From the IMG/VR virus record IMGVR_UViG_2636416136_000011: a DNA stretch of 41,816 nucleotides; one strand, given 5' to 3'. The notes beneath the pieces are model-generated. The model saw nothing but the letters and a program-made list of their open reading frames with translations, had not been told where the DNA came from and ran no database searches. Origin of the DNA: a virus (lineage: Duplodnaviria; Heunggongvirae; Uroviricota; Caudoviricetes). How positions within the stretch are numbered: position 1 is the first letter of the stretch; each line of letters starts with the position of its first letter. A program made the position numbers and the translations under genes. Shown here in pieces: positions 1 to 17,515 of this stretch.

Positions 1-273
1 TACACATATTCACGCTCATTAATACAATCATTTAAAGGAAACAACAAACTCATTGAGGATTATGAAAAAATCCTTATTGGCATGGCAGACAATAACAAAG
101 ATAAAACCATGTATAAGAGATTACATGATGCAAAAATAAATGTAATGGTAGATTATGCTCAAGGGATAAAAAATATTGATGCAGAGCTAAGAGATGCAGT
201 CAATAAGGGATTCGACATTATCGACCAAGAAGTAAAGTCACTACAAATGAAATTAAACAAATTAGCTTCATAG
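1..273 (+). CDS. hypothetical protein, 5'-truncated by the window edge
   Basis: Frame 1 is open from nt 1 to the stop at 271-273; A+T-rich and lysine-rich; no motif recognised; lies outside the invertase end of the prophage. Confidence 0.35.
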   Translation, partial: YTYSRSLIQSFKGNNKLIEDYEKILIGMADNNKDKTMYKRLHDAKINVMVDYAQGIKNIDAELRDAVNKGFDIIDQEVKSLQMKLNKLAS

Positions 274-353
274 AATGCTCCACTCCCTGTTCAATATTTT
301 TACAAGCTTATCAGCCAGCCGTGGCACGTTCTTGCATACGACGTGCTACGGTT

Positions 354-908
354 TCATTTATCTCCGACCGGAAACCTCTTATACAAAGTCGATATGCCAA
401 CATCATAGATGATCGCCACCTTCTGGCGAGGAACTCCTGATGCAATTAATCGTCCGGCCTGTGCCCATTGTTCTGGTGTAAGTTTGGGACGTCGTCCACC
501 AATTCGTCCCTGTGCGCGAGCAGCTTCCAGGCCAGCTTTTGTTCGTTCAACAATCAGTTCTCGTTCCATTTCAGCCAGGGCACCCATCACATGAAAGAAA
601 AAACGCCCCATCGGTGTGCTGGTATCAATAGCATCCGTCAAGCTGCGAAAATTAACGCCACGTTCGCGCAACTCCTCAACCAGAATGACCAGATGCCGCA
701 TACTACGCCCCAGCCGATCCAGCTTCCAGACAACCAGAGTGTCACCTGCCGATAATGTCCTGAGCAGTTTTTTCAGTCCCGGCCTTTCGGACTTTGTACC
801 GCTTATTTTGTCTTCAAAAATCAGCTCGCATCCTGCACAGTTCAGCGCATTACGTTGTAGATCTGTGTTCTGGTCATTTGTTGACACACGTACATAGCCA
901 ATAAGCAT
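354..908 (-). CDS. Serine-recombinase DNA invertase (Gin/Pin/Hin/Cin family)
   Basis: N-terminus MLIGYVRVSTNDQ with catalytic Ser, VVWKLDRLGRS and GRIGGRRPKL motifs and a C-terminal HTH; start taken at the internal Met (908) rather than the upstream in-frame Met at 944. Confidence 0.9.
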   Translation of the reverse strand: MLIGYVRVSTNDQNTDLQRNALNCAGCELIFEDKISGTKSERPGLKKLLRTLSAGDTLVVWKLDRLGRSMRHLVILVEELRERGVNFRSLTDAIDTSTPMGRFFFHVMGALAEMERELIVERTKAGLEAARAQGRIGGRRPKLTPEQWAQAGRLIASGVPRQKVAIIYDVGISTLYKRFPVGDK

Positions 909-934
909 GGTAGATCTCCCTGACAAAAGCAGGA

Positions 935-1327
935 ATGATGCCATTTGCTCGTTATTTCTGCATTTTCATAAACGTTGGTTTGGGAGAGGCGGCAAAAAGG
1001 AATGTGGGGACAGGGACGAATCAGATACCTGATATGGGTAGTTTTATGCTTTCTGCTTCAGTTCCTGGATATCAAAAATTGCCATCCGGTTTAATTATTC
1101 AATGGGGGCCAATTGATGTTCCGCTGACGTCTCAGGACACAGTAACCTATTTTCCGATTGCATTTCCGAACAGATGTCTGCGGGTATTTGCGACTCAGGA
1201 TTACACTCCCGGCAGTGCAAATGTTGGCTATATAGCTTGTGCCGGTTATAACCAGGACCCGGTGAAATTTATTTCCAGAGCAGGCGTACCCGGTATCGGT
1301 GCTTCATTTTTCGCATTAGGGTGTTAA
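935..1327 (+). CDS. Silent alternative tail-fibre C-terminal (receptor-binding) segment, expressed only after inversion
   Basis: Plus-strand ORF reading outward from the crossover site, with no start context of its own; the encoded GLGE at the site matches GLGEG at the crossover in the expressed fibre. Confidence 0.55.
963..988. repeat. hix/gix-like invertase crossover site (invertase-proximal), TTTTCATAAACGTTGGTTTGGGAGAG
   Basis: Its reverse complement CTCTCCCAAACCAACGTTTATGAAAA matches the site at 2803..2828 in inverted orientation, including a 13-bp identical run; internal AAACC/GGTTT dyad as in hix sites. Confidence 0.7.
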
Positions 1328-1353
1328 TTTCTTTTAACTTTATGGAGTGAAAA

Positions 1354-1794
1354 ATGAATTACATATATTCCGCGACTACAAACTCTTTCTATCCCTTGGA
1401 GATGAAAGAGGATTACACGCAAGCTGACTCATGGCCAGATGATGCTGTTGAAGTTGATGAGCAAGTGTATATTGAGTTTTCCGGATTACCGCCGGAAGGA
1501 AAAATCCGTATCGCTGGAGAAAATGGTTTTCCTGCATGGTCTGAAATTCCACCACCAACGCATGAGGAACAGATTGCTGCAGCCGAACTGGAAAAGCAGC
1601 AATTGATTAATCAGGCCAACGATTATATGAACAGTAAACAATGGCCTGGTAAAGCGGCTATTGGTCGTCTGAAAGGTGAGGAACTGGCGCAATATAATTT
1701 GTGGCTGGATTACCTGGACGCACTGGAAATGGTCGATACTTCCAGTGCGCCAGATATTGAATGGCCTACGCCTCCGTCAGTTCAGGCCAGATGA
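1354..1794 (+). CDS. Tail fibre assembly protein (Tfa/U'-like) paired with the silent fibre tip
   Basis: About 146 aa, directly downstream of the alternative fibre tip and converging on the other Tfa gene (29-bp overlap), as in Mu U/U'. Confidence 0.65.
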   Translation: MNYIYSATTNSFYPLEMKEDYTQADSWPDDAVEVDEQVYIEFSGLPPEGKIRIAGENGFPAWSEIPPPTHEEQIAAAELEKQQLINQANDYMNSKQWPGKAAIGRLKGEELAQYNLWLDYLDALEMVDTSSAPDIEWPTPPSVQAR

Positions 1795-2359
1795 CATCCG
1801 GCGCGGTGCTGGTATCTGTTGCCGTCACCGCGTCAATGTAATCCAGCACAGCGTTAAGCCGGGTTGTTTCTGCCTGCGTCAGTTTCCGCCCGGCCTGTAA
1901 TTTCAGCTGAATCAGACTAATGGAAGCCATTGCTGCATCAATCAGCGACTGGCGCTGTGCTTCTGCCGCGCCTACTGCGGCGCTATGCTGTGCCTCGGTA
2001 TCCGTCACCCATTTCTCACCATCCCATTTATCGTATGGCGTTAACGGTGAAAGCGTGACATAACCGTCTTTGATGGCACCGATATAATCCACTGTAACAG
2101 CTGCACCATTTTCTGTTGAGTAAACAGTCTCATTGCGATGGTCTTCTTCATGGCTCCATCCCTTACCCGTAAATACTGCCACTTTTCCCGGAATGTTTTC
2201 GCCCGGGTCAATACCAGTGGAACAGGCGGGCATACTTACGCCAGTATTAATATATTCATCAGACCAGCCCGTATACTCAGTTGTTTCAGCATCATAATAA
2301 AAACAACGCATATCGCCCGGCACTGTAGCCAGCCCATTTTCATCAAAAACAGGTTTCAT
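1766..2359 (-). CDS. Tail fibre assembly protein (Tfa/U-like) paired with the expressed fibre
   Basis: 197 aa, immediately downstream of the tail fibre gene with start/stop overlap; position and size typical of a fibre chaperone. Confidence 0.65.
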   Translation of the reverse strand: MKPVFDENGLATVPGDMRCFYYDAETTEYTGWSDEYINTGVSMPACSTGIDPGENIPGKVAVFTGKGWSHEEDHRNETVYSTENGAAVTVDYIGAIKDGYVTLSPLTPYDKWDGEKWVTDTEAQHSAAVGAAEAQRQSLIDAAMASISLIQLKLQAGRKLTQAETTRLNAVLDYIDAVTATDTSTAPDVIWPELTEA

Positions 2360-3171
2360 TATTTAGCCCTCACCAGAAAGTTAAATGCAATATTTCGCGG
2401 TCTGACAGCAACAAAATTCACACCATCACCCACAGAGTTACTGGTGAAATTAAATCGTGAAAATCCTGGCTGATTTCCGGCGATGCCATCATGAAAGTCA
2501 ATTGCGTGTCCCGCACCTCCGCCTATATTCCCGGCAAACTGAGAAAAGTTTGTAGCTTCCTGCCAGCTTAATAATTCGCGACCACCATCTGCACCTCGCC
2601 CGTCATCCCAGATACGAATGAAATCACCGCGGGCTTCAGGTAATACCAGCGAAGGAAACACTTTCGCCAGCACAGGGTAATCAGTGGCAGAAAATTTCGC
2701 CCCGTTGAACTTCAAAAACACCATACCGGACCAGCTGTCGATGACAGAATTTGGCATTGCGGCGGACGGCCAGAAGAACGGAACGCCAATAGCTGGAGCA
2801 CCTTCTCCCAAACCAAGGTTTTCGAGAGCCGTTTTCACCGTGCCATCCGATTTGATATCGCCAAACGGATTCTTGCGGCTCAGGTATTCAACAGCAAACC
2901 CCGATCCCAGCAATTCAACAAAACCGGGCAGATCACCATTATCAAGCACATCCCGTTGCGTTTTGTCACTTACAAACTGGGCCAGAGCTGCAGCAATAAA
3001 GCTGGCCTGCCGAATAACCTTATTGACTTGCGCACTGGATGCTTTCCCTGCTGTAAATCCGGATAAAAGCGCAGGCAACGCTTCCCATTCCTCCTGCGAC
3101 ATAACATTGGCATTTTTACCCGTTGCGAATGCTTTAAAGTCATTTTTTGCCATCAGAGTAATACTCCCCAT
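2359..3171 (-). CDS. Tail fibre protein (constant N-terminus plus invertible C-terminal receptor-binding part)
   Basis: C-terminal collar-like motif [29 protein letters not shown]; a hix-like site lies inside the gene. Confidence 0.75.
2803..2828. repeat. hix/gix-like invertase crossover site (inside the tail fibre gene), TTCTCCCAAACCAAGGTTTTCGAGAG
   Basis: 20 of 26 positions match hixL as I recall it (TTCTTGAAAACCAAGGTTTTTGATAA); inverted copy at 963..988; central AA dinucleotide at 2815-2816. Confidence 0.7.
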
Positions 3172-3833
3172 GCCCCTACATCAAAACCACTGATGAATTC
3201 GTTATCCATATCAAAACCAAAAAATTTTGAACCTTCCGATGGGGTTTCCACCGAAGGTGTTTCAATGCCACCCGCCCACACCCCGGCGGCTTTTACTGTG
3301 AGATATCCCTGTTTAATTGCAGCAATTAACTCACGCGATACATCTGAAATATCAGTATCAGGAAAGACCCAGACCGATATCGTCATGTCCTGGTTATCGA
3401 CTATCTGCATTCGCAGCCCGGATCCTGCTGTTGCCGCGTCAAGAATTACCGGAAGCGAATCATTCCGTCCGTCCCAGTTATTAATCGCAATCTTCGCTTT
3501 AAGGATGACACGATAAGTTTCATCGCTGAGGTACATGTATCCGGAATCAGGATCGTATGGCCCCTGCCATACACCCTGATCATATCCAAGCCCGTCGGTA
3601 TCCCAGCTGAAATAGACACCTGAGATAGGCTGGCTGACAACACGGCTACGTCCGATCCACAATCCAAGAATGTCAAGTTGCACACCAACCGCGGAGTCAA
3701 TATCAAATGCAGTAATCAACCCTCTGGTGGCCGCCGCAACATCAATAAGCGGCCGGGTCATCAGATCAACATGCGCAAGAAATTTAGGTTTGGTGGCGTG
3801 GTAGTTCGTGATTAGTTCGGTGTATTTGCTCAT
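3153..3833 (-). CDS. Tail/baseplate protein (gpI/gp48-like position)
   Basis: 226 aa between the baseplate J-like gene and the tail fibre; overlapping coupled starts. Confidence 0.4.
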
Positions 3834-5029
3834 GACTCCACCGTTATAACGATATTTTCCGGGGTACAGGACGCAGATTCGTTGTATCTGATATCAATGT
3901 TTGATGACGACAAAGCCCCCGGGGATTTCCCAATCGTCAGTTCCTGAATATCGTAATAGCGTGCATTCCCGCCACTCACCACGCCAAGATTCGCCGGTGA
4001 GTAAATGCGACTTAAAAGGACCGAATCACCAATCATCAGACTATTGATATAGTCGGAAATAGCCTGCTGGATCTGCTGCCCTATCTGTGAGGTATAACCC
4101 GTAAAAACTTTTAATTTAATCCGGGCATAAACAGGCACATCACTGGAACGCGAGAATTTGATTACATGGGGATTGCCGTATTTATCCGGAACCGTAACGG
4201 ATGTTGTACCGTGAGTGGCTGTCCCCTGGCCTTTATTTCCTCTGATAGCCTGAGCAATATCCGTCACATCACCGCCATCCACAATTACAGCAACAGAGTG
4301 TGGCGGTAACCCGTTACCGTCCTCTGAACCAGTATCGTTTTCATAGAGTTTGTGGCGGGTTACACCGGTAACATTAGAAACAGCACCATCCAGTGCTTCA
4401 AATGGGGTTATTGATGGCAACGCAACACTTTGCGACTGACGGATACGTAACTCCGCATCAGTTTCTGCCGGAGTGCCTACAGTAGCTGCAGCAGGATTGG
4501 TTACCGAAACCCAGCCACGGGTTGGCGTATTAATTTCAGTGATAGTTCCAGCCAGCGCCGCCACTGCACCACTGACGGAACATGTTGCGGTCGCCATCAC
4601 TGTACCATCCACGCCGACCACCACTGAAGCAGGCAAACGCCATATCACATTATTACCATCTTTCACGCTGCCATTAATGATGGTTGTTCCGGCAGTTCCT
4701 GTAAGAAGCAAATCAACCGTAGAGTTCGTCGCGCCTTTACGTGAAATACCATTTATTTTCACGTTACTGGTCAGTGCAGCCCCATAGCCGGTTGCCGGTG
4801 AAAAACAGTTGTAGACAGTTATCGCAGTATTATTGGCATCATGAATCGCCAGCGCCATCAGAGCCACCATCTGGCCGTCTTTGCTGTCCGGTTCGAGGTA
4901 GGCATCACTGCCATAAATCTGCTGAAAATAGCTAATCAGGGTGCTGAGTATCGTCTGATAATCAGGCGCACTGATCCCCTCCGCGGTTACCTTTGCAGAT
5001 AAACCGAGAGAATCAAGGTTCAGAGCCAT
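3830..5029 (-). CDS. Baseplate J-like protein
   Basis: 399 aa; position after the gpW-like gene; threonine/glycine/valine-rich β-type sequence typical of baseplate wedge proteins. Confidence 0.55.
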   Translation of the reverse strand: MALNLDSLGLSAKVTAEGISAPDYQTILSTLISYFQQIYGSDAYLEPDSKDGQMVALMALAIHDANNTAITVYNCFSPATGYGAALTSNVKINGISRKGATNSTVDLLLTGTAGTTIINGSVKDGNNVIWRLPASVVVGVDGTVMATATCSVSGAVAALAGTITEINTPTRGWVSVTNPAAATVGTPAETDAELRIRQSQSVALPSITPFEALDGAVSNVTGVTRHKLYENDTGSEDGNGLPPHSVAVIVDGGDVTDIAQAIRGNKGQGTATHGTTSVTVPDKYGNPHVIKFSRSSDVPVYARIKLKVFTGYTSQIGQQIQQAISDYINSLMIGDSVLLSRIYSPANLGVVSGGNARYYDIQELTIGKSPGALSSSNIDIRYNESASCTPENIVITVES

Positions 5030-5382
5030 TACGCCTCCGATGTAACAGTCGTTATTCCATAAAGAGTGTCGATTTCAGCGGAAAACATGACACGTCGGGT
5101 CGTGGTATCCAGCGTCGTATTGAAAGAGAGGATTGATTTAACGCCCTGCGTTTCGAGGATGCGCTTACGGATCGCCAGGTTGTAGGTTTCCGGCTTCTGC
5201 TTACCGAGTACGGACTGGATCCACGGAGTCCCCTCGGTGGTGTCGAGAAACCATTGCCCATACCACAATTCGAATCGCGTTTTTACCGCCTGCGCCACGG
5301 CCTCCGGTGAGTTAATCAGCCAGGTGTCATCACCGCTGCCAAAGGTGTAATCGCCATCGGCGTCTTCACGTCTGTATCGCAT
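5029..5382 (-). CDS. Baseplate wedge protein (gpW/gp25-like)
   Basis: 117 aa, translationally coupled between the spike and J-like genes. Confidence 0.45.
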   Translation of the reverse strand: MRYRREDADGDYTFGSGDDTWLINSPEAVAQAVKTRFELWYGQWFLDTTEGTPWIQSVLGKQKPETYNLAIRKRILETQGVKSILSFNTTLDTTTRRVMFSAEIDTLYGITTVTSEA

Positions 5383-6134
5383 CAGTTTACCCCGTCGGTA
5401 CTGCTTTCACCGCGCTGAACACCACCATGAGTGTGCGTATCATCGATTGGCTTGCCGTTAGCCTTCACGCCCCCCAAAAACTCAACAGCACCAGTGATTT
5501 TTGAAGCCACACCAGAAACCACAGACCCCACCATGCCCCCCATCCAGGTTAACAGGCCATGAATGGTTACTTTCTCAGAAAAATCAGCCAGGGGGGCAAC
5601 CACATCAAGACCACCTGGAGCGACAATTTTAATTTTCCTGGTATCAGGATTAAGCTCAAAATAGGTGCTGCCGTCATCACTACGCAACTGTGTGGCACTG
5701 GTATTAATACCGCTAATCTTCCTTGCCTGCGACTGGGGACCGACAATACAAAACGCATCCGATAAATCATGCATTCTGTCATCGACCGACTCCTGTATCC
5801 CGCCACTCTGCCACCAGAAATCAATACAACGATCGGCAAAAATCACCAAACATTCATCACCGGCTTTAACTGGGAACGTTAGCGTACATCCTCCGCCGCG
5901 CGGGAATACCACTGGCACATCCACCAGCAATGGGTAATTTTTGGTAATGCGGTTGCCGTCATTATCCTTTTCAACCGAACGGATAGCAGGCTGCACAACT
6001 GCCGTCACCGCATCAGGATCGAATGACTGAATAATGCCAGGCAAGGCGACACGGATCTGGTTCTTTGTTGTTTCCCGTTCAGATTTGAATGTTTCGGCAA
6101 GGTCGCCGCTGCGGGTCTGGTCAGATACTGCCAT
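5382..6134 (-). CDS. Baseplate spike / assembly protein V-like
   Basis: 250 aa, first gene of the V-W-J-I block; glycine-rich C-terminal extension. Confidence 0.55.
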   Translation of the reverse strand: MAVSDQTRSGDLAETFKSERETTKNQIRVALPGIIQSFDPDAVTAVVQPAIRSVEKDNDGNRITKNYPLLVDVPVVFPRGGGCTLTFPVKAGDECLVIFADRCIDFWWQSGGIQESVDDRMHDLSDAFCIVGPQSQARKISGINTSATQLRSDDGSTYFELNPDTRKIKIVAPGGLDVVAPLADFSEKVTIHGLLTWMGGMVGSVVSGVASKITGAVEFLGGVKANGKPIDDTHTHGGVQRGESSTDGVN

Positions 6135-6152
6135 TTAGTAGGCTCCAGAAAG

Positions 6153-6175
6153 CAAAAAACCCGCCGAAGCGGGTT
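6153..6175 (-). terminator. Rho-independent terminator closing the two-gene moron
   Basis: Minus strand reads AAACCCGC-TTCG-GCGGGTTT followed by TTTTTGC, just 3' of the 6194 stop and before the baseplate spike start. Confidence 0.65.
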
Positions 6176-6193
6176 TGATAACGTTAATTTTAT

Positions 6194-6589
6194 TCATGAA
6201 ACTCTAGCAGACTTTAGCTGTTCCCAGCGCTCAAAATAGAGTTCAGCAGCCTCGATTGCATCCTGTCCCATCTCTTTCGAAACAGTCACATTCGTCAGAT
6301 CATAGTCAGCTTCATTTCTAGCATCCCGCCACTGGCGAAGTACGAAAGCTAGGGATTTCAGTGTATTTGTCGGGTATGGCTCTGATTTGCACTCTGAGGG
6401 CGTTGACATATAACCCACAGTATTTTTGTGATGCTCATGGGTAAAATGCGGTATGGCAGTAAGTGAGCTAATAGACTCATGTAACATACTGTAATACGCC
6501 CTTGAGATAGCGCTTCGAAATCCACTCTCAATATTTTCAGACAGACATAATCGAGCGGTATCGAGAATCTGATTGCTAGTTACCGACAT
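6194..6589 (-). CDS. HEPN-like domain protein (candidate toxin/defence effector), moron gene 2
   Basis: 131 aa; motifs RAYYSMLHE (R-x6-H) and RDARNEADYD (R-x-x-A-D-Y) resemble classical HEPN signatures; A+T-rich; 14-bp overlap with the upstream gene. Confidence 0.5.
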   Translation of the reverse strand: MSVTSNQILDTARLCLSENIESGFRSAISRAYYSMLHESISSLTAIPHFTHEHHKNTVGYMSTPSECKSEPYPTNTLKSLAFVLRQWRDARNEADYDLTNVTVSKEMGQDAIEAAELYFERWEQLKSARVS

Positions 6590-7349
6590 GGTAGCTCACC
6601 CCCGTATGCAACTGACGCGGAGAGGTAAATCTAGCTAACAGGGAACAATCATCCAGTTTAGATTCAGCGCAGACTCTATCAGCCAAGTCGAAGTTCATTT
6701 TGGCAATAGTTTTAGGCTCAAGATTTTTAATATCAACAACATAGCAACCGCTTCCACTAAGCTGAACGAAACCTGTCGTAGCCTTGTATTCACTTAGCAA
6801 GCCCCAGATTATGGATGCTAAGGTCTGGAACTGTTCCTTCGAGCACTGTGTGGCGCTATAGAAATTATCCATTTCTGCAAGGAGTTCTTCTTTGTGCTTC
6901 ATAGCATTACTCCTGCCTTCTGATTCAGAAAGAAGCTTAATGTGCTCTTCCATATAAAATTTTAACTGTTCACGCTCGCCGCAACGGTACGCCCAACTGT
7001 ATGCGTTGTGACTAAAGAGTTTTGTCCGATACTTCTTTGCCAGCGGGACATAGACATCCTTGAGTTCATTATAGCTAAATGTATTAATTAAAATGTGATG
7101 ATAGTGCATTGCCAACGTTACATCGTTTACTTCTAGGCTTATCCTGAGATAACGTAACGCGCTTTCAATCTTTCCGGTTATTGCATCCAGATAAGATAGT
7201 GCAATGTTGGTAGCAGGCGTTGGAGAGACAGAAAGTTCCTCTCGAATTTTCTTTTCAGTGAAGGGATCTAAACTTTCCCTATCCAATAGAAGCGCATTGA
7301 ATTGTTCAATATATTTTTGCGCTTTTTCTAATGGGATGCCTGCCGCCAT
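6576..7349 (-). CDS. Hypothetical protein, moron gene 1 (partner of the HEPN-like protein)
   Basis: 257 aa, no motif recognised; A+T-rich; separated from the upstream gene by a 95-bp gap. Confidence 0.5.
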   Translation of the reverse strand: MAAGIPLEKAQKYIEQFNALLLDRESLDPFTEKKIREELSVSPTPATNIALSYLDAITGKIESALRYLRISLEVNDVTLAMHYHHILINTFSYNELKDVYVPLAKKYRTKLFSHNAYSWAYRCGEREQLKFYMEEHIKLLSESEGRSNAMKHKEELLAEMDNFYSATQCSKEQFQTLASIIWGLLSEYKATTGFVQLSGSGCYVVDIKNLEPKTIAKMNFDLADRVCAESKLDDCSLLARFTSPRQLHTGVSYHVGN

Positions 7350-7444
7350 GGATTATTTCTCTTACTAAAGGGATTGTGATTGTGAACTTTGAACAATATC
7401 TCGTCAACCTTAAAGCGCTCATCTCGGAAGATTGACATCAAACT

Positions 7445-7777
7445 TTAGCGTAACGCCTTTTTACACGGGAAAGATCCAATGATTTTCGGCGCGTCCATGC
7501 TGTTCTGCAGCAGCTGGACGTTCAGGAAAGCTTTTCCGTTACGTTTCACAAACTCAAAGCCGTAATTGTTACCATCACGGGAAGGCATCAGGCCCATGTC
7601 CATTTTCATGTTTGAATAGTCACCATCTTTTCCCAGAAATTTTATCTTCTGTGATGTGACAGTTTCACCGTTAATAACAGTCATTCCGTCACCGGTCATC
7701 GTGTAGTTGCCGCACTGAATTGCAGCCATCGCCGGAGCAGTAACCATCATAACTAACGCCAAACATAACCGTTTCAT
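7445..7777 (-). CDS. Small secreted/periplasmic protein with N-terminal signal peptide (cargo gene)
   Basis: MKRLCLALVMMVTAPAMAA signal-like N-terminus with two Cys in the mature part; start overlaps the stop of the upstream baseplate gene (TAATG). Confidence 0.55.
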   Translation of the reverse strand: MKRLCLALVMMVTAPAMAAIQCGNYTMTGDGMTVINGETVTSQKIKFLGKDGDYSNMKMDMGLMPSRDGNNYGFEFVKRNGKAFLNVQLLQNSMDAPKIIGSFPCKKALR

Positions 7778-8841
7778 TAAAGCCCTCTTTCCCTCGCTGA
7801 TGAGGAAACAAGATCCGCCGCGCCACGCGCTTCACACATCATATCCATGTACCACGCCTGGCCCCTTGTGTCGCCAGTGTACATAATCCCGCGCACAATA
7901 TAAACGCCATCCGTTGCGATGCTGGCAGGCTGCGATGTGGTGCCGCTGAGCGTGATATTTCCGTCCGTGTTCTGGTCGGTGATCTGACCACCAGCCATCG
8001 CAATATCGTTGTTCGACAACGCGGTACGATAGACGGAAGCCTGATCCAGCTGAATGAGCCCGTTAACCCGGATGTTCGGATTAATAAGCGCGCGGACGTT
8101 TACGCCGTTACCGATAGTCTGCTGCGGCATTCCAATAAGCCCGGTAGCGCTGTTGAGCACAATCGCTTCGTGAACATATTCGTTATTCGCCACCATCTGG
8201 CGCTGACCGTCCACGAATTGCCATGTTGCGCCACATTGTCCGGCTACGTTATCCATTAGATGCCGCGTCATGCCAAAGAGTACCCGCCCCCGAGGGAATA
8301 CAGTAGCAGGCATTTCAGGCGTCAGGCCTTCGGTCGCGCCTTTGGCTTCGAAGTCTTTCATCAGCGCACGGTTCACATCAGCGACCGTGTAACCGGCAGC
8401 CAGCGTCTGTGAGGTTATACTGGTAGCAAAAGCCAGATCAGTATCTGCTGCCTGAATCAGGACGTAGGTATCAACCGGACTGTCTTTTCCTGTGACCGAG
8501 TAGCGAATTTCACCGCTGAAAATCAGTCCGTAGTTGCGGCCATCTCTCTGGCCCACGTCCGCCGCGTCAACTTCCCGCACGGTCCCTACGTCGCTTGCTG
8601 ACACCTCCGGCGCGATACCGTCGTAACCGGCAATCAGACGCACTTTCGAAAACTCCTGCCCGGTAATTCGGTTCACAGTATCTGCCGAGAGGTTATAAAT
8701 TTTGATAGTCCCTACCCGGGACGCGCTGCTGATGTTGAACCAGTCGATCGTAAAGGTGACTTTGAAATCACTTAGCTCAATTCCCTGACCGTTCCCGTCC
8801 ACAAGCTGCAGCTCGAAATGTCTCATCCAGTTCTGTGACAT
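7777..8841 (-). CDS. Baseplate hub / tail protein (gpD/gp44-like position)
   Basis: 354 aa, third gene after the tape measure gene. Confidence 0.45.
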   Translation of the reverse strand: MSQNWMRHFELQLVDGNGQGIELSDFKVTFTIDWFNISSASRVGTIKIYNLSADTVNRITGQEFSKVRLIAGYDGIAPEVSASDVGTVREVDAADVGQRDGRNYGLIFSGEIRYSVTGKDSPVDTYVLIQAADTDLAFATSITSQTLAAGYTVADVNRALMKDFEAKGATEGLTPEMPATVFPRGRVLFGMTRHLMDNVAGQCGATWQFVDGQRQMVANNEYVHEAIVLNSATGLIGMPQQTIGNGVNVRALINPNIRVNGLIQLDQASVYRTALSNNDIAMAGGQITDQNTDGNITLSGTTSQPASIATDGVYIVRGIMYTGDTRGQAWYMDMMCEARGAADLVSSSARERGL

Positions 8842-8843
8842 GC

Positions 8844-9146
8844 TTACTCCGTTGATACCAGTAAATGGCTGCGACCGCCCAGGTCAGTTTTTGTGGGGTA
8901 ATCCTGTGTGTTGTCATCACAGACCACCACCAGCTTAAAACCAAGCCCCATACAGGCGTACTGCGCCAGCAGCTCAGCACCAGTGACGAGAGGAATACCG
9001 GAGATTACCGGCTCCCCTCTGTCGTTCTGCAGGTCCATAATCCAGTACAGATCGCGCCATATGATGCTAATCCGCCAGGTGACACCACCCAGGACGATGC
9101 TGAACTGCTGGTTGTCCGCTGTCAGCGGAATTTCCTGAATTGTCAT
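8844..9146 (-). CDS. Tail protein
   Basis: 100 aa, coupled between tail genes downstream of the tape measure gene. Confidence 0.4.
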   Translation of the reverse strand: MTIQEIPLTADNQQFSIVLGGVTWRISIIWRDLYWIMDLQNDRGEPVISGIPLVTGAELLAQYACMGLGFKLVVVCDDNTQDYPTKTDLGGRSHLLVSTE

Positions 9147-9733
9147 TAGCCGCCCCCCAGTAATGACGCCACGTTACCCGTGATGCTTTTCAGCAGTGAA
9201 GTATCTGGAGGCTTTGTGGTTTTGTTGCCGCTGTTCTGTACCGCCGACGTGCTGGCCCCTTCCTTCATGTTGGTTTTATCCGCGACGGTAATCTGCTGTG
9301 TCCGGGAGATAATGACCTCCCTCAGGGTGAGGACAGCGGACAGGACGTTTTCGGTTGTCTTGTCCGTCGTCACTTCCAGCGCCCGGATCAACATGTTGCT
9401 GTACAGCCGTTTACCGGTTACCACATCGAAGGGGATACGGCTTTCCTGCAGACCCAGTAGCTCCTGATACGTCTGCTGAGGACTCAGGCCGAGCAGGCTG
9501 GTAGCCGTCAGGTTACTGGCAAAATCCAGCAATGCGCCGCCACCGGCGAAACCAACCTCCATCACCACTTCTGACGGTTTTTTATAGGCATGATCAGCGA
9601 CAGCGGCCCCGACCTCTACCGGATGCTCTGTTATTTCAAGCATATCTGTATGCTTCTCTGAAATAACAACACTGGGAACAATCATTCCTATTTTTCTGCT
9701 CTGCTGATGAAAAAGTGTAGAGAGAATATCCAC
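9146..9733 (-). CDS. Tail protein
   Basis: 195 aa, immediately downstream of the tape measure gene, coupled. Confidence 0.4.
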   Translation of the reverse strand: MDILSTLFHQQSRKIGMIVPSVVISEKHTDMLEITEHPVEVGAAVADHAYKKPSEVVMEVGFAGGGALLDFASNLTATSLLGLSPQQTYQELLGLQESRIPFDVVTGKRLYSNMLIRALEVTTDKTTENVLSAVLTLREVIISRTQQITVADKTNMKEGASTSAVQNSGNKTTKPPDTSLLKSITGNVASLLGGG

Positions 9734-11718
9734 TAACCCACCCTCACCTGATTACTTCGCATGACCTGAGCATTTGCAGACTGTTGCCGACGTGCAACCT
9801 CATTACCGACAGCGTGCGGATCTCCGCCACCGTAAATGTGGTAGGTATTTTGCTGGTTAACCTCTGTCACTTTGCCACTAATTCCCGCCACGGCAGCCTT
9901 ATTAATCAGCTCTCGAGAATAGATATTTCTTCCATTCTCATGCTGGATAATGCTGCTCATCAATGCTGACATGGTTTGCGGATCACTCATATTCAGGGCA
10001 GCCCGGGGATCCACTCCCAGTCGTTGCGATACAGCCCTGATATACGCTGTTGTGTTGTTATTATCAGACGCAGGTGCCCAGGTAGAGATAATTTTCTCCA
10101 CACTGTTTATTCCCCGTCCGGCGTACAGCATTAACTGACGAGCAAGAGCCCGTAATCCATCAAAGGCAGTTTCAAATCTGGCAAATCGCCCGCCCGGGCG
10201 TTCAAGAGAAGCCCCTGCCTGACCAGCAAAATTAAGGTTTCCCGGATTGTTATTCCGTTCTCCTCGTTTCGTAGCCTGTGCATATTGTTCCGGCTCAGCA
10301 CCTGGAATATCTGACTGAATATTTGCGCCTTTTACGGTATGAGGATTACGACCAAAATCGGTATCAATGCCAAGCCAGCGCAATGAATCTCCAATATTTT
10401 GTTTCGTGTAATCCCAGGATGACTTCGCACTGGCACCAATATTTTCGCGATCAGAGTACAAATACGCAGCATAAGCCATCCAGCCTTTTAACCACGGCGG
10501 GACCGGCAAACCTGATATTTTCCCGAAAGCCCCCAGAACCCTGGATACCCAGACACCCGCGATGAATGTACCAAGGATTTCCAGTGCATTTTGCCAGCCG
10601 CCAACACCATCTTTTAGTTCCAGAAGGTGATCACGAAGCCAGGTGATCGCATCCTTCGCTTTATCTATTGCCGGTTGCCATTTTTCCCAGTCGATAAGAC
10701 TGTTACCGCCTTCTTTCCATGTTTTGTAGTCTTCCCACAAGAGACCGAGAGCCACGATCAGACCGGTAATCAGCCCTATAGGTGACATCCAGAAAGTAGA
10801 GTTAAGTATCCGCATGGCGACAACCAGACCGCCGATAACCTCTATCAGGGTTTTCGTTTCGGCATCCAGTTTCCCCCACCACTCGATGATATCTCCGACA
10901 CCATCGACTATCCGAAATGCTACCCGCCCGACTATCTCACCCAGCCAGAGGATCCCCTTTATGACCTTTGTGATGGTGACTTCAATTTTGGGAAAATTTT
11001 CAATTATCTTTTTGCGCAGGTTATCAATCTGCCCCGCCAGTCCGTCCGCAAGATTCGATCCGATTTTGTCCCGCGCCATCCTGGCCATTTCACCGAGCGA
11101 TTTCAGCGAGGTCATAAACCGGTTTGACGATAAGGCAGCCTGATCGGCATTAAATCCGATCGCTTTCACCATTTCTGAATACTGAGCGCTGAACTGCCCC
11201 ACTCCGCGACGCATAGCCATCAGGGTATTTTCGTCAATGCCCAGCATCTGCGCATACTGGTTAGCCCGGTAATACGGCATGCTGCTGAGTTTCTGTCCAA
11301 CGCCCGTAAAGATAGCAGCCATGTCACGCATGTTACCGCTGGCATCACGGGTCTGTACGCCCAGGCGATTCAGAAAGCCTTCTGCTCCGGGATTGTTACG
11401 AATAAACCGGGAGAGGCTTTCCAGAGAAGATCGCGCAGCGTCCACACTGCCGCCAACCTGCGAAACCGCATAGCCAATAGACTGAATTCCCTGGACCGTC
11501 GCGCCGGTGCGCTGTGACGCCCAGTAAAGATTATCCAGGCCGGAGGCGATCTTAGCCGTGAAGGCCACCACGGACAGCGCAGCCCCTTCAACAGCCAGCC
11601 CCATTTTGATGACATTTGCAGTTGTACCGGCGAGGACAGAACCGAACTTTTTCGCTCCTGCATCATCCACACTGAAGCCAAGCGAGACGAGGAAATCTTT
11701 AATAGTTTCAGCGTTCAT
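9733..11718 (-). CDS. Tail tape measure protein
   Basis: About 660 aa with hydrophobic central segments; start set at MNAETIKDF (ATG 11718) with upstream GGAGAGAGG. Confidence 0.7.
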   Translation of the reverse strand: MNAETIKDFLVSLGFSVDDAGAKKFGSVLAGTTANVIKMGLAVEGAALSVVAFTAKIASGLDNLYWASQRTGATVQGIQSIGYAVSQVGGSVDAARSSLESLSRFIRNNPGAEGFLNRLGVQTRDASGNMRDMAAIFTGVGQKLSSMPYYRANQYAQMLGIDENTLMAMRRGVGQFSAQYSEMVKAIGFNADQAALSSNRFMTSLKSLGEMARMARDKIGSNLADGLAGQIDNLRKKIIENFPKIEVTITKVIKGILWLGEIVGRVAFRIVDGVGDIIEWWGKLDAETKTLIEVIGGLVVAMRILNSTFWMSPIGLITGLIVALGLLWEDYKTWKEGGNSLIDWEKWQPAIDKAKDAITWLRDHLLELKDGVGGWQNALEILGTFIAGVWVSRVLGAFGKISGLPVPPWLKGWMAYAAYLYSDRENIGASAKSSWDYTKQNIGDSLRWLGIDTDFGRNPHTVKGANIQSDIPGAEPEQYAQATKRGERNNNPGNLNFAGQAGASLERPGGRFARFETAFDGLRALARQLMLYAGRGINSVEKIISTWAPASDNNNTTAYIRAVSQRLGVDPRAALNMSDPQTMSALMSSIIQHENGRNIYSRELINKAAVAGISGKVTEVNQQNTYHIYGGGDPHAVGNEVARRQQSANAQVMRSNQVRVG

Positions 11719-11953
11719 TATCCTCTCTCCATTTCTCAATGCGTCGCTGGTTATCCGCTTTTACCGCCAGATGGTCATTCAAGAGAGCAATGTCATACAA
11801 ATCGACAGAGCCATCTTTAAGTGCTGTATAAGGAATTAACCCGGCGTCAACCGGATTGAGAAGGTAGGACAGCCCGTCCGGCAGGCTGTTAAACGTCAGC
11901 CCTGTTGCAGGCTCTGCGTCGTGCTGGTAAGGGGTGTAGGCAAAAAATTTCCC
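11708..11953 (-). other. -1 programmed frameshift extension of the tail assembly chaperone (G/GT-type), slippery heptamer G GGA AAT at 11947..11953
   Basis: The -1 frame is open with no Met from the slippery site across the whole 156-bp gap and stops at TGA 11708-11710, overlapping the tape measure start. Confidence 0.5.
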
Positions 11954-12348
11954 AGCGAATCGGCGACCACCCGCGCCACCAGCTGCAGCATGACCAGCAA
12001 GTCAATATCATCAAACATCAGTTCGCCCTGGGTAAATACCGGCACCCATCCGTCCATATGACGCCGCGATACCACCGCAAGACAGGGATGAATAATCGCA
12101 TCGGTGTCATCTTCGGTCAGGGAAGACAGTTCCTCAGCGATACGCGGGAGCATGGTTTCAAACACCGGTTTTAACTGTTCGAATTTCACGGTGTCGATTT
12201 TGCCGTCAGCAGGCAAACGGGAGCGAATACTCCCGAAATCTGACATCATTCCTGCCAACACCGGCAGAAGTTTGCGGGTCACTTTCAGTTGGTCAAAAAC
12301 GCTGAGTTTTGCCACGCGATATTTCACGCCTTTAATTTCGAATTCCAT
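11896..12348 (-). CDS. Tail assembly chaperone
   Basis: 150 aa between tail tube and tape measure genes; carries the frameshift site near its 3' end. Confidence 0.55.
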   Translation of the reverse strand: MEFEIKGVKYRVAKLSVFDQLKVTRKLLPVLAGMMSDFGSIRSRLPADGKIDTVKFEQLKPVFETMLPRIAEELSSLTEDDTDAIIHPCLAVVSRRHMDGWVPVFTQGELMFDDIDLLVMLQLVARVVADSLGNFLPTPLTSTTQSLQQG

Positions 12349-12351
12349 GCA

Positions 12352-12792
12352 TTAAAACTCCCCGAGAACCTGGTCAATCTTGCCGCAGTCAAACACCCAC
12401 GGCATCGTATTACCGGTTTTAGCGTTGGCGTTATCCGGTTGTTTCTGGAACGCAACACTGCGTGCCGTGATGATGTCGCCGCTGACCTTGTTGCGGATCA
12501 CGATAACGTTATTCCCCCATGTGGCAGAAGACTGGCTCTGTGCGTTATACGCCAGCGACAATTTTTTATTTGTCGGTGATGTCTTCAGAAGGTTAACGGT
12601 AATCGTCCCGCTTTTATCTGCATGGAGACTGTGCATCACTTCGCCATCAGCACCGATGGTCATGGTGTTTTTAGGACCACCCATCGCAACCACAATCCCC
12701 TCTTCAGAACTTGCCGAACCGTACCCGAGGTCAATCGAACCGGTCGGCCCGGTCAGCGTCGCAGTGACATCCATAAAAGAATAGGTAGACAT
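12352..12792 (-). CDS. Tail tube protein
   Basis: 146 aa immediately after the sheath gene. Confidence 0.55.
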   Translation of the reverse strand: MSTYSFMDVTATLTGPTGSIDLGYGSASSEEGIVVAMGGPKNTMTIGADGEVMHSLHADKSGTITVNLLKTSPTNKKLSLAYNAQSQSSATWGNNVIVIRNKVSGDIITARSVAFQKQPDNANAKTGNTMPWVFDCGKIDQVLGEF

Positions 12793-12802
12793 TCACTTCC
12801 CC

Positions 12803-13948
12803 TTAGCGAACAACGTTAATCTGTACGTCAGCGTAATGAACCGCGCCTGCAAGTTTTATTGCAGCCTGAATCACCGGAGCCTTACGGGCTTCACGTTCTG
12901 ATTGTGCCTGTTCATCCAGCGGCTGGGCGTATACGTAATAACCTTTGGGCAGTGTGTCACCTGATGACAACTGACCAAGGTCGCCCCCGTTCCATACGCC
13001 CGGAGCAATCAGTCCATTCTGAACGGCCTGATCCAGTGATTTTTCAACATTTGATAACAGTCGGGTAATACCGGCTTCAGTCTGGGGAACTTTCGTGGTA
13101 CTGGAATAAAGCAGGTTATAGAGGTTGGTCTGCACATAATTCTGTAACCAGTCCAGGCCGTGGCGTTCATCAAAGAAATCGCCGTTAGCCATCACTCCCT
13201 GCTGGAGGATAGCTGTATCATTCTGGTAGTACACGAACACATTGCAGTTTTTTGCATCAAGTGCCGATGCCTGGCTGACTGTCAGTGTTTCATACCCGAC
13301 ACCCGGCTCCTGCTTAAACTTGAGCGTAATCGCGGTATTACTGCCATTGAAATTAACCGTGAATGCCCGGCCAAATGCAGATAACGCAGCGTATTTATTA
13401 CCCGATGAATACTGAATAAAACTGCGTGAATATCCGGCGGTTTTCAGTTTTGATGCCAAATCATCGCTGGATGCAGTCTGCAGGCATTTCTCATCGCTTG
13501 TCGTAATCGCCAGAATACGGCTTACAGAAGAGGATTCGATCGCCGCAGCCACTTTCAGCCAGTCTGCATCCGGAATATCTTCATCGCCTGCAATCCCCAG
13601 CCCATACCATGAAGTATAATCGAGCATGGCATTCACAGCCTGCTCCAGCGTCTCAGGCGTGGCCTGTTCGCTGTCTCCCTTCGTTTTCACCCAACGACCA
13701 ACAAAAACCTCCTGAGGTTTCGGTGATTGTGAGAAAAACACCTGCGCAGCTTTATATTCTGGTGATTCCACGCCAAAATCTTTTCCAATATCTTCCGCGG
13801 CAGAATAACGACGAATGCGCTCACTTACCGGAATGATTGTGGACGGGCCGAGAATGAGTAATGCACCAAAATTTCGCCCTGATGCTGCACGCGGCGACAT
13901 GATCACATCAACATTAACAACGTTTGATACAGGCAAGCCCTGTGCCAT
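12803..13948 (-). CDS. Tail sheath protein
   Basis: 381 aa preceding the tube gene. Confidence 0.55.
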
Positions 13949-13951
13949 AGC

Positions 13952-14518
13952 TTAATCTCCGAAAAAGATGACTGGTGCTTCCACCAGCGATTTAATACCG
14001 TACTCGCGCACAACCTTCCGGCGCAGACGCACCGTCATATCGTAGCGGCGGACCCATTGCTGATTAATAAGTTCAGGGAAGGGAGTCAGACCTGTGTAAT
14101 CGCCAAGAGACAGCCCCAGCGCATTCAGTGCTGCGTTGTTCTGCGGTACAGATATACCGTCACGAAACCGGGACGCATACACCATCCCCGCCGGACCATA
14201 AAACGAAGCCATACACTCAATCGTTTCATGCCGCCAGAGCTGAGAGCCATCATCGGTCTGTCTGGTGAATGCCGGACTGTCATCACCTGACCATCCGATA
14301 ACCCCAAACGCACACCAGTTCGTTTCAGCCGGTAGCAGTGGCGGTTGCTCTTTCTGCCAGCGCGGACGAACCATCCCGGCAGACAGACCGGAAACGTTAC
14401 GCATCCACTGGCTTAACAGCCTGTCGAGCGCTTCGTCATAATCCGGATCGCCACTGGTTGGTATTAACCATCCGCGCTCTGTACTGGTGTTATTGCTCAA
14501 CCGGAGTTCCCCCATCAA
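13952..14518 (-). CDS. Head-tail joining / tail completion protein
   Basis: 188 aa, position between capsid and sheath genes. Confidence 0.35.
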   Translation of the reverse strand: MMGELRLSNNTSTERGWLIPTSGDPDYDEALDRLLSQWMRNVSGLSAGMVRPRWQKEQPPLLPAETNWCAFGVIGWSGDDSPAFTRQTDDGSQLWRHETIECMASFYGPAGMVYASRFRDGISVPQNNAALNALGLSLGDYTGLTPFPELINQQWVRRYDMTVRLRRKVVREYGIKSLVEAPVIFFGD

Positions 14519-15824: not shown

Positions 15825-16011
15825 TTTTTACCTCGTTACGCGCGTCTGTGGCTTTGCCAACGGATACTTCCGCGTGCGCACGAGTGAACCAGTGCGTGGC
15901 AACGTCTTCCTCCACAGCATGACGGCCTTTAACAAACTCGCGCCGTGAACCGTCGGGAAGCGTGAGCACAAACGGGGTATGTACGTGTATTACTGCATTA
16001 TTTTTTGCCAT
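15790..16011 (-). CDS. Small phage structural-module protein
   Basis: 73 aa directly downstream of the major capsid gene. Confidence 0.3.
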
Positions 16012-17512: not shown

Positions 17513-17515
17513 TTT

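Follow-up and report, generated by a model that had tools for sequence, protein, structure and literature searches.

A mobile HEPN/TPR-partner gene pair in a cargo hotspot at the hub-spike junction of an Escherichia coli prophage

The DNA analysed here (the window, 41,816 nucleotides) holds a complete SEN34-like prophage of E. coli, in which an insert separates the baseplate hub gene from the spike gene. The insert is a cassette of 1.2 kb, and its two open reading frames (ORFs), coding for a 257-aa protein (the partner) and a 131-aa HEPN protein, are both present in the sequence. The cassette, its signals and the relevant neighbours are as follows.

5382..6134, minus strand: membrane-puncturing spike gene (PF18352, E 4e-44, plus an Apex motif; RefSeq "membrane-puncturing spike protein")
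6147..6176, minus strand: intrinsic terminator found by scan, with stem AAACCCGC / GCGGGTTT, loop TTCG and a T-run
6194..6589, minus strand: HEPN gene, 131 aa, AF0298/UPF0332-like HEPN-T branch, second gene of the cassette
6576..6589, minus strand: overlap of partner stop and HEPN start, 14 nt, ATGTCGGTAACTAG, read from the sequence
6576..7349, minus strand: partner gene, 257 aa, first gene of the cassette
7379..7407, minus strand: candidate cassette promoter, from a sigma-70-like consensus scan
7445..7777, minus strand: signal-peptide protein, 110 aa (phrog_3443; RefSeq "STY1065/STY2022 family")
7777..8841, minus strand: baseplate hub gene (phrog_196 "baseplate hub", E 5e-89; weak Pfam match to E217_GP41)
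25249..25671, minus strand: Q-family antiterminator of the same prophage (RefSeq annotation of a 99.99% identical record, mapped onto the window)

A first, sequence-only reading described two minus-strand genes that overlap by 14 nt and are richer in A+T than their neighbours. The ORF coordinates bear out the overlap, and the GC content of the cassette is 42.7%, versus 51.7% in the rest of the late region, which places it in the lowest 1.7% among equal-sized windows of the prophage. GC3 is 0.40-0.43 in the cassette genes versus 0.49-0.61 in the flanking genes. Both ORFs are under strong purifying selection, with a dN/dS of 0.05-0.10 for the 257-aa ORF and 0.02-0.05 for the 131-aa ORF. A purine-rich GGGGGTGAG is found within the last codons of the partner, just before the overlap, an arrangement that suggests translational coupling of the partner and the HEPN protein. 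An overlap of 11-26 nt, or direct abutment, was seen in almost all of the 120 loci at which the two genes are paired. The HEPN gene is absent from at least one current RefSeq annotation, and being unannotated there it would be overlooked by annotation-based screens.

The same reading had proposed a promoter in the 95-bp gap ahead of the cassette and a clean terminator behind it. In the gap (7350..7444), a -35 element TTGACG (7407..7402) is followed by a 17-nt spacer and a -10 element CACAAT (7384..7379), which ends 29 nt ahead of the ATG of the partner. This promoter is a candidate defined by its match to the consensus. The strict pattern recurred some 29 nt ahead of the start codon in 31 of 56 unique cassettes versus 0.4% of random windows, and both the architecture and the distance to the start codon are also kept in unrelated phage backbones (e.g. 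L012, L044 and L097). The variants L113-L117 have no intergenic gap at all before the cassette. The terminator is likewise upheld: the hairpin and T-run at 6147..6176 end about 13 nt before the GGAG ribosome-binding site of the spike gene, and an equivalent hairpin with a T-run follows 47 of the 56 unique cassettes (versus 1.5% of random windows). Antitermination by the Q-family protein is a plausible route by which late transcription might pass through this terminator into the spike and baseplate genes.

The conserved hub gene forms the left boundary of the slot and the conserved spike gene, whose family occurs on at least 595 viral contigs, forms the right one. A position between hub and spike, as first read, is correct in this wider sense, but the 110-aa signal-peptide gene (7445..7777) separates the hub from the cassette. 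This gene marks the variable slot's limit on the upstream side and varies too, with a product 55-100% identical across loci whose hub stays 94-98% identical. The statement that related tails have nothing at this position had to be abandoned, since relatives carry other cargo and the slot is a hypervariable cargo site. The cassette is missing from phages whose flanks are 98.6% identical, and it is absent or replaced in 49 of 80 close-relative loci whose spikes are 88-100% identical. The slot holds 15 or more alternative cargos, among them a YafO-family toxin encoded downstream of a larger gene (7/80 loci) and other small cargo. In addition, at least four divergent alleles of the HEPN/partner module replace each other there among near-identical phages; one divergent allele matched PADLOC HEPN_IX at an E-value of 0.009 only. 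No validated defence systems occurred among the other cargos of the slot. The hub-spike slot is a cargo hotspot of tail genes that was not noticed before.

The moron concept comes from Hendrix and co-workers. Each of the moron features looked for was found at the cassette, namely extra genes between otherwise adjacent genes, a promoter (here a candidate) with a terminator, and a deviant composition. Together with its absence beside 98.6% identical flanks, these features confirm the moron layout proposed from the letters, and the cassette is a mobile two-gene accessory unit (moron) of a SEN34-like E. coli prophage.

This unit travels as a whole across at least five phage contexts (hub/spike; tube/TMP; TMP/tail-L; lysozyme/HNH-TerL; and a Vibrio early region), and the promoter and terminator are retained with it. 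As in type II systems, the two genes are co-directional, overlapping (by 14 nt here) and consistently found together: of 123 HEPN ORFs, 120 directly follow a partner homologue. Two of the three unpaired ORFs lie at contig ends, and in the third (L127) a shorter, TPR-like ORF of 228 aa, below the profile threshold, overlaps the HEPN start. The pairing reaches Vibrio cholerae and a PF05168-positive outlier, and no locus among the 123 clearly keeps the HEPN gene without a partner. Across 55 unique pairs, identity falls to 28% for the HEPN protein and 14% for the partner. The divergences of the two genes are tightly correlated (r 0.955), with the partner evolving faster in 97% of comparisons. Within the partner, the TPR half is the most variable part (0.33) and the C-domain the most conserved (0.45). 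Among 5,426 complete E. coli genomes, 27 carry the cassette, and the contigs that hold it number at least 1,000; it is common in prophage-derived contigs and occurs in two of 50,697 isolated phage genomes. This phage-borne sub-family is mainly restricted to Enterobacterales, Aeromonas and Vibrio, and a search of species-representative genomes with the narrow partner alignment found five loci only. One isolated phage, YP3, carries a partner 100% identical to that of prophage L215, has lost the HEPN gene and the terminator, and forms plaques without the HEPN protein. Its 266-aa protein gave no significant match to the narrow partner alignment (hhalign, probability 3.5%), and it matches the broader 50-sequence partner profile over its full length (43.8 bits).

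The 131-aa protein had been read as a HEPN protein with RAYYSMLH as its canonical Rx4-6H motif. The fold, a four-helix up-and-down bundle, was confirmed by family profiles and structure, but the motif assignment was not. The protein of the window has no Pfam match even at E<=1 and thus falls below threshold on Pfam HEPN; because direct Pfam, NCBIfam and PADLOC scans were uninformative, the assignment rests on the family profiles and the structure. PF05168 was matched by 10 of 21 family members (best E 2.4e-6), the family profile matches HEPN proteins in the PDB (E 2.6e-6), and remote homologues carry precomputed PF05168. RAYYSMLH lies in helix 2, and its R-x6-H is a motif that belongs to this HEPN branch. 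Rx4-6H has its counterpart in R91-NEAD-Y96, in which a tyrosine, invariant in 55 sequences, replaces the histidine, so that the canonical motif at the helix-3/4 junction is lacking. Over the 55 unique sequences, with HEPN identity down to 28%, the invariant residues are E21, R25, S29, R30, Y32, Y33, H37, P47, H54, Y60, L84, R91, A94, D95 and Y96. To our knowledge, RNase activity has not been demonstrated for the AF0298-like branch. AF0298-like HEPNs are without the Rx4-6H histidine and have an alternative conserved histidine in an insert between helices 2 and 3 (PMC3710099), which corresponds here to H53/H54. The invariant Arg/His/Asp/Tyr set agrees with the alternative active site proposed for AF0298-like HEPNs (PMC3710099). 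We assign the 131-aa protein, a minimal HEPN domain, to the AF0298-like "HEPN-T" toxin branch and predict for it a metal-independent RNase activity, although the absence of the canonical catalytic histidine counts against that prediction. A literature search for 9xbd, UPF0332 or the partner accession retrieved no paper.

The partner was said to match nothing recognised. It does belong to no described family, with no family found in Pfam, PADLOC or NCBIfam, but its N-terminal half is a TPR array. By profile and fold, tandem helix-turn-helix repeats span residues ~7-139, followed by long helices (146-187), a small C-terminal alpha-beta-beta-alpha-beta domain (~171-242), and a tail (243-257) that is predicted with low confidence yet conserved. 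Rather than protein function, the conservation of this tail (T249-Y253) may stem from the HEPN gene, whose ribosome-binding site and start codon overlap it. No informative structural or sequence match was obtained for the C-terminal alpha/beta domain. HTH, RHH and AbrB families were not detected in 50 partner homologues, and the partner thus lacks the DNA-binding domain through which type II antitoxins autoregulate. A local GSG...D raised the possibility that the C-domain is a degenerate minimal nucleotidyltransferase (MNT), which was rejected: the Gly-Ser is unconserved, the close family shares just one invariant acidic residue, and a beta-hairpin is predicted in place of beta-alpha-beta. The earlier judgement that the partner is not an MNT, and the cassette not a standard HEPN/MNT pair, is sustained by the lack of a GS/DxD motif, an NTP_transf match and an NTase core, and no MNT antitoxin gene is adjacent to the cassette.

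HEPN nucleases are recurring effectors of bacterial immunity. The structure of the genes, the fold and the family are established, as are the obligate pairing, the mobility, the hotspot that the cassette occupies and its regulatory signals. The anatomy and location of the cassette and one natural deletion (YP3) lead us to infer toxicity, neutralisation and a part in defence. In the mechanism we propose, the cassette would be transcribed from its own sigma-70-type promoter up to its own terminator, and the partner would be made first, probably translationally coupled to the HEPN protein. The partner would stand in for the MNT antitoxin usual with such HEPN toxins, binding the HEPN protein and keeping it inactive, presumably via the conserved C-terminal domain. 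The active site probably combines R91 with a histidine outside the motif (H54, or perhaps H37), which would make up for the absent Rx4-6H histidine. The fast-evolving TPR array would confer specificity, most likely by sensing a protein of the infecting phage or through its loss on infection. The freed nuclease would then arrest growth of the infected cell, an abortive infection or superinfection exclusion that would benefit the lysogen. We put the chances at about even that the cassette is a new non-MNT HEPN toxin/partner module, with prophage-borne defence as its probable, candidate function. A broader proposal is held more tentatively, with the balance somewhat against it: that a His-shifted HEPN-T and a TPR antitoxin/sensor replacing the MNT form a new prophage-borne abortive-infection family, that at least four alleles, the YafO cassette and a dozen unknown cargos mark the SEN34-like hub-spike junction as an unexplored defence hotspot, and that the YP3 partner is an anti-defence "orphan antitoxin", an argument drawn from this one phage.

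The strict co-occurrence, the correlated divergence and the fast-evolving TPR half would fit equally well if the HEPN protein were inert alone and the TPR partner switched it on after sensing a phage component, with no toxin-antitoxin behaviour. In other defence proteins, among them STAND/TPR proteins (PMC9122126), TPR arrays serve as sensors. HepS (PMC13043305) and Tha (PMC11087260) are HEPN nucleases activated by phage tail proteins, and the orphan partner of YP3 would be harmless in this model too. However, the HEPN proteins nearest to this one are toxins of toxin-antitoxin pairs (HepT), which act unless they are neutralised, a larger partner placed ahead of an overlapping small effector is the usual antitoxin-toxin order, and the YafO toxin cassette in the same slot has a like layout; activation by the partner is in our estimation unlikely, though it keeps a real chance. 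The toxin-antitoxin-like anatomy could also belong to a pair that stabilises the prophage or itself and excludes no other phages, and the movement of the cassette as a selfish unit through many phage backbones would suit such a pair. Yet, among near-identical phages, the content of the hypervariable slot changes between four or more divergent alleles of the module and no fewer than 15 alternative cargos, a turnover typical of conflict-driven diversification, not simple maintenance, and the variable TPR half suggests changing targets. Maintenance as the sole role thus appears quite unlikely.

A role in the lytic cycle of the phage itself or in counter-defence might, for example, involve an RNase or nucleotide-binding protein that is made in excess along with the late genes and degrades RNAs or signalling molecules of the host or a competitor, with the partner as a chaperone or targeting subunit. 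Being co-oriented with the late operon, the cassette would also receive Q-antiterminated late transcription, and the missing canonical histidine makes a non-catalytic binding role possible. We consider such a role improbable because the cassette is dispensable (98.6% identical flanks occur without it, and YP3 forms plaques without the HEPN protein), is nearly absent from isolated phages (2/50,697) while common in prophage-derived contigs, and has a conserved sigma-70 promoter of its own that points to expression in the lysogen. The location between hub and spike genes is the only argument for regarding the two proteins as conserved parts of the baseplate or of tail assembly in this phage group. 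The comparative data refute that reading almost completely, as the cassette is absent or replaced in 49 of the 80 close relatives with 88-100% identical spikes and occupies non-tail positions elsewhere (lysozyme/terminase and early regions), and the folds (a HEPN nuclease and a TPR protein), the deviant composition, and the own promoter and terminator also speak against it.

A HEPN/partner module probably serving prophage-borne defence, as we prefer to read the cassette, has no published description that we could find, is absent from PADLOC (neither protein matched PADLOC-DB v2.0.0 at E<=1), and is compact and experimentally tractable. Small HEPN-T proteins are known to us almost only as partners of MNT nucleotidyltransferases. 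The cassette would exemplify a natural exchange of the MNT for a repeat-protein partner, implying a different control of the nuclease, and would give access to the AF0298-type active site, which is poorly understood. Moreover, its slot lies in a very common enterobacterial prophage group that could be mined for further systems. Identity with DS-41/ANEX, a validated DefensePredictor system of a HEPN and a 252-aa protein, was rejected on account of unrelated sequence and opposite gene order. As to other DefensePredictor systems, motifs and WP accessions of the partner and the two flanking genes are absent from the portion of the supplementary tables that was available.

In the type VII toxin-antitoxin system HepT/MntA (Shewanella SO_3166/SO_3165; PMC13000451), the toxin has the motif R-x4-H and an MNT partner, whereas the HEPN protein here has R-x4-Y and a 257-aa partner with TPR and a novel domain. 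HepT/MntA AMPylates a tyrosine beside the motif; Y96 is invariant here but no transferase is present, and AMPylation is not expected as the means of neutralisation because the partner is without a GS/DxD motif, an NTP_transf match and a beta-alpha-beta NTase core. The 2013 HEPN census (Anantharaman et al., PMC3710099) described HEPN-T proteins as MNT-associated, cellular toxin-antitoxin components. AF0298-like/UPF0332 HEPN-T (PDB 2hsb) is of this kind, while the sub-family here is phage-borne and always accompanied by a TPR partner. RnlA/RnlB and LsoA/LsoB, countered by phage T4 Dmd (PMC8266594), likewise combine a HEPN toxin with a non-MNT antitoxin. However, RnlA and LsoA are three-domain proteins of ~350 aa with the antitoxin downstream (PMC8266594), the partner here is large, TPR-based and upstream, and neither cassette gene is related to them in sequence.

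HepS of Gifsy-1 (PMC13043305) and Tha/Ith of staphylococcal prophages (PMC11087260) are likewise HEPN nucleases carried as prophage accessory genes, and HepS and Tha, which phage tail proteins activate, protect the lysogen by abortive infection. HepS acts alone and has the canonical R-x4-H, whereas the cassette HEPN is paired and has R-x4-Y; Tha is larger, and its cognate phage-encoded inhibitor Ith is small and antisense-encoded. Neither HepS nor Tha has a TPR partner, and no sequence similarity of the cassette to HepS or Tha/Ith was detected. The hotspots of P2-like phages and P4 satellites (Rousset et al. 2022, PMC9122126) are likewise fixed sites at which unrelated small cargos interchange; here, the phages are SEN34-like/Brunovirus-type myoviruses, and the position is another one (baseplate hub/spike). 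The census also lists LA2681 HEPN, fused to or in an operon with TPR, and AbiU2, in an operon with a Sel1-repeat protein (PMC3710099). These belong to other HEPN families, keep the canonical Rx4-6H and are not described as phage morons; by architecture only, they share with the cassette the design of a HEPN nuclease joined to a helical-repeat protein.

The window holds a complete prophage of ~41 kb in an E. coli chromosome, bounded by pinE/tail-fibre genes on one side and by a tyrosine integrase adjoining yfhL on the other; positions 1..27450 are 99.99% identical to NZ_CP025703.1. Two overlapping minus-strand ORFs (herein the cassette, comprising a partner and a HEPN gene) were indeed found where the sequence-only reading had placed them, with an overlap of 14 nt (ATGTCGGTAACTAG). 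They lie between the baseplate hub and spike genes as proposed, except that a 110-aa signal-peptide gene intervenes on the hub side.

Features of the cassette and its surroundings
5382..6134, minus strand, membrane-puncturing spike gene (Pfam PF18352, E 4e-44), downstream of the cassette
6176..6147, minus strand, terminator (GC-rich hairpin and T-run), 3' of the HEPN stop codon
6194..6589, minus strand, HEPN ORF, 131 aa
6576..7349, minus strand, partner ORF, 257 aa
7407..7379, minus strand, candidate promoter (TTGACG, 17-nt spacer, CACAAT) in the 95-nt upstream gap
7445..7777, minus strand, signal-peptide gene, 110 aa (phrog_3443, 'STY1065/STY2022 family'), upstream of the cassette
7777..8841, minus strand, baseplate hub gene (phrog_196, E 5e-89), upstream of the cassette
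25249..25671, minus strand, Q-family antiterminator, encoded by the same prophage

The 110-aa gene also has a lowered GC content (45%), and its protein is 55-100% identical among phages whose hubs are 94-98% identical; rather than belonging to the baseplate, it may be another accessory gene, whose product could be periplasmic or serve in exclusion. The hub gene is interrupted, giving two ORFs (212 and 139 aa), in the deposited genomes of phages vB_EcoM-606R2 (3540..4604) and vB_EcoM-683R1, through either a frameshift or a sequencing error. Elsewhere in the prophage, the annotation of the identical RefSeq record places a pinE-type site-specific invertase beside opposed tail-fibre and tail-fibre-assembly genes (~354..2360), probably an invertible host-range segment. 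The early region (~29885..39750) is a replication/DNA-modification module encoding an Nmad5 'nucleotide modification' protein, DUF2800/DUF2815 proteins, a family A DNA polymerase, VRR-NUC, a SAM methyltransferase, a DNA cytosine methyltransferase and an SNF2 protein.

The cassette is more A+T-rich than its neighbors, as had been noted by eye: its GC content is 42.7% versus 51.7% in the remaining late region, which falls in the lowest 1.7% of prophage windows of equal size, and third codon positions exhibit the same contrast. Both ORFs are real genes, since dN/dS against relatives at 85-89% identity is low (0.05-0.10 for the partner and 0.02-0.05 for HEPN), and 55 unique pairs conserve both, down to 14% (partner) and 28% (HEPN) identity. 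The RefSeq annotation of NZ_CP025703.1 contains the partner (WP_000718774.1) and has no CDS at the HEPN ORF; other E. coli records listed have just two features in the queried interval, which would fit the partner and the 110-aa gene. Given its low dN/dS and confident HEPN fold, a real gene appears to be missing from that annotation.

When scanned directly, the 131-aa protein matched nothing in Pfam, NCBIfam or PADLOC, and in PHROGs it belongs to phrog_5176, which has no assigned function. However, a profile of 22 homologues matched PDB entries 9xbd ('HEPN domain-containing protein', E 2.6e-6) and 2hsb (UPF0332 protein AF0298, E 2e-3) in an alignment spanning SRAYY...H...R-N-x-x-D-Y, 10 of 21 diverse family members matched Pfam HEPN (PF05168) directly, and a broadened profile reached proteins bearing precomputed PF05168. 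These matches establish the HEPN fold, and the protein is by fold and family profile a superfamily member of the AF0298-like HEPN-T kind. The family named in the sequence-only reading is thus upheld, with a correction to the motifs: RAYYSMLH, taken for the Rx4-6H signature, sits in helix 2, and the equivalent site is R91-N-E-A-D-Y96, with a tyrosine in the place of the histidine. According to the 2013 HEPN census (PMC3710099), AF0298-like HEPN-T proteins have lost the motif histidine and retained the arginine, and an insert between helices 2 and 3 supplies a second conserved histidine, which corresponds here to H53/H54. Because E21, R25, R30, H37, H54, R91, D95 and Y96 are invariant family-wide, they appear to form a constrained polar cluster that is probably catalytic.

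The 257-aa partner (phrog_17809 in PHROGs, with no assigned function) matched no family in Pfam, NCBIfam or PADLOC. Its confident structure model (pLDDT 91.8) nonetheless predicts about four TPR-like helical hairpins (residues 7-139), where the sequence-only reading had recognized nothing, and after them two long helices, a small alpha-beta-beta-alpha-beta domain (171-242) and a tail modeled with low confidence. That it is not a minimal nucleotidyltransferase (MNT), as had been suspected, was borne out by the lack of any such match or of a conserved G-S or DxD motif, and by a topology that does not fit. A partner profile searched against 1.8 billion representative proteins yielded 123 clusters, nearly all of them 250-265 aa and matched from end to end, which argues that the partners are a family of their own and not merely proteins sharing TPRs. 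The conserved tail overlaps the HEPN ribosome-binding site and start codon, and for that reason its conservation may be at the nucleotide level.

Loci bearing either gene were collected from viral contigs, species-representative genomes and assemblies. For 120 of 123 HEPN ORFs, the gene immediately upstream, on the same strand, is a partner homologue that overlaps the HEPN ORF by 11-26 nt or abuts it. Contig ends truncate two of the three exceptions; the remaining one (locus L127) has a shorter TPR-like ORF of 228 aa, below the profile threshold, that overlaps the HEPN start. The pairing holds in a Vibrio cholerae prophage and beside a PF05168-positive outlier, and more-distant HEPNs have a 133-aa gene upstream, or none. 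Pairwise divergences of the two proteins are strongly correlated (r 0.955), with the partner diverging faster in 97% of comparisons; mean identity is 0.33 in the TPR half (the most variable part), 0.45 in the C-terminal domain (the partner's most conserved part) and 0.48 in HEPN. Thus, partner and HEPN form one unit.

This unit is mobile cargo carrying its own signals. It is absent from vB_EcoM-606R2 and its relatives, where a 170-aa gene stands between flanks that are 98.6% identical, and from SEN34, which has two other small genes there; the assertion that related tails normally have nothing at this position is therefore mistaken. It also occurs at other sites.

Alternative sites of the cassette
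between tube/YdaY genes and a tape-measure gene, unrelated backbone
between a lambda-type tape-measure gene and tail L/K genes, unrelated backbone
between a lysozyme gene and HNH/terminase genes, unrelated backbone
in a Vibrio early region, unrelated backbone

The promoter and terminator anticipated on either side of the cassette both found support. A strict promoter pattern (TTGAC-N, 16-19 nt, [T/C]A-N-[A/C][A/C]-T; searched ≤120 nt upstream) was present in 31 of 56 unique cassettes versus 0.4% of random windows, and a hairpin with a T-run follows 47 of 56 versus 1.5% of random windows, although the cassettes share descent and neither count is independent. The predicted promoter usually ends exactly 29 nt ahead of the start codon, and both signals persist even at protein identities below 50%. 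Since the terminator ends ~13 nt short of the spike ribosome-binding site, late transcription must pass through it, which the Q-family antiterminator would allow. In a divergent allele (L113-L117, e.g. L115 ~5220..6372; HEPN of 123 aa, partner of 258-266 aa), the 110-aa gene is directly followed by the partner, leaving no gap for a promoter between them; expression of this variant may depend entirely on the late operon or on a promoter within the upstream gene.

In SEN34-like prophages, the slot between hub and spike (6135..7776) is hypervariable in its cargo. The spike family is present on at least 595 contigs; among the 80 viral contigs surveyed (L135-L213; spikes 88-100% identical to that of the window), the slot holds at least 15 cargo classes. 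The cassette occupies it in 31 (about 39%), with partners in three divergent clusters of 257-266 aa (window type), 243 aa and 257-259 aa (broad-profile E 2e-95, 3e-29 and 2e-78, respectively); a fourth allele is of the type found in Yersinia phage YP3. In seven of the 80, a 192-aa gene precedes one for a 138-aa YafO-family toxin (PF13957, E 4e-17; L150 3962..4958), another toxin cassette with the same large-then-small layout and an unusual large partner, not a recognizable YafN antitoxin. Further cargos are uncharacterized proteins, a DUF2335 membrane protein, a secreted OB-fold protein and one with a weak PycTM-like match. A slot protein of 170-173 aa (vB_EcoM-606R2 2696..3208; L192 4420..4941), without a Pfam or PADLOC match, has the sequence RNNLFHGG, whose R-x4-H motif hints at another kind of HEPN-like nuclease. 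Because none of these cargos is a validated defense system, the location is only suggestive of a defense role.

A natural deletion bears on how the pair might work. In YP3 (PV092592; 2626..3549), the slot encodes a 266-aa distant, full-length partner homologue (43.8 bits). Prophage-derived contigs with partners 100%, 99% and 86% identical to it all have a family-typical HEPN behind (55-59 bits), the 100% case being L215 (3001..4253). DNA identity extends through the partner ...SKED codons and is restored at the spike ATG; the ~110 nt between are unrelated and stand in place of HEPN and terminator, and no HEPN was found elsewhere in YP3 at tblastn sensitivity. HEPN can therefore go while the partner stays, and the reverse was never clearly seen in the collected loci. 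This asymmetry, a single case, is what a toxin and its neutralizer would predict, and brings to mind phage T4 Dmd versus RnlA/LsoA. The YP3 partner is a candidate 'orphan antitoxin' or anti-defense gene, carried here by an isolated phage.

The gene anatomy, the fold, the obligate pairing, the mobility of the cassette, its place in a hotspot and its regulatory signals are all observed, and the comparative data exclude a structural baseplate role, its homologues not being conserved baseplate genes. The best-supported reading, to which we give about an even chance, is that the prophage expresses a toxin/partner module. The partner would be synthesized first and neutralize a toxic HEPN RNase; infection by another phage would release or activate the nuclease, the trigger being perhaps the binding of a phage protein to the variable TPR array, or loss of the partner, and the infected cell would then cease growth, giving the defense phenotype. 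The main rival, in which the partner is a positive sensor-activator instead of an antitoxin, is unlikely; a pure addiction module is less probable still, and least probable is that the cassette serves the phage's own lytic cycle or counter-defense.

The pair is absent from PADLOC v2, no paper naming it was found, and it is not DefensePredictor DS-41, with no match to the sequences in that paper's tables searched. We regard it as a HEPN toxin module whose partner belongs to a new class. Its strengths are the clean replacement of the MNT by a TPR protein, a predicted histidine-shifted active site, at least four alleles in a newly delimited hotspot, a phage with an orphan partner (YP3), and ease of testing. 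New HEPN-based prophage defenses are reported regularly, and for that reason the finding is interesting rather than revolutionary. The pair does not qualify as a HepT/MntA system, since a test for the MNT that defines such systems was negative. Among those systems that could be compared, no sequence relationship was detected to RnlAB/LsoAB, HepS or Tha/Ith. The likeness is one of design: to RnlAB/LsoAB in the non-enzymatic neutralizer proposed here, to HepS and Tha/Ith in the putative role as a prophage HEPN defense, and to LA2681 and AbiU2 (PMC3710099) in the coupling of HEPN to TPR or Sel1 proteins.
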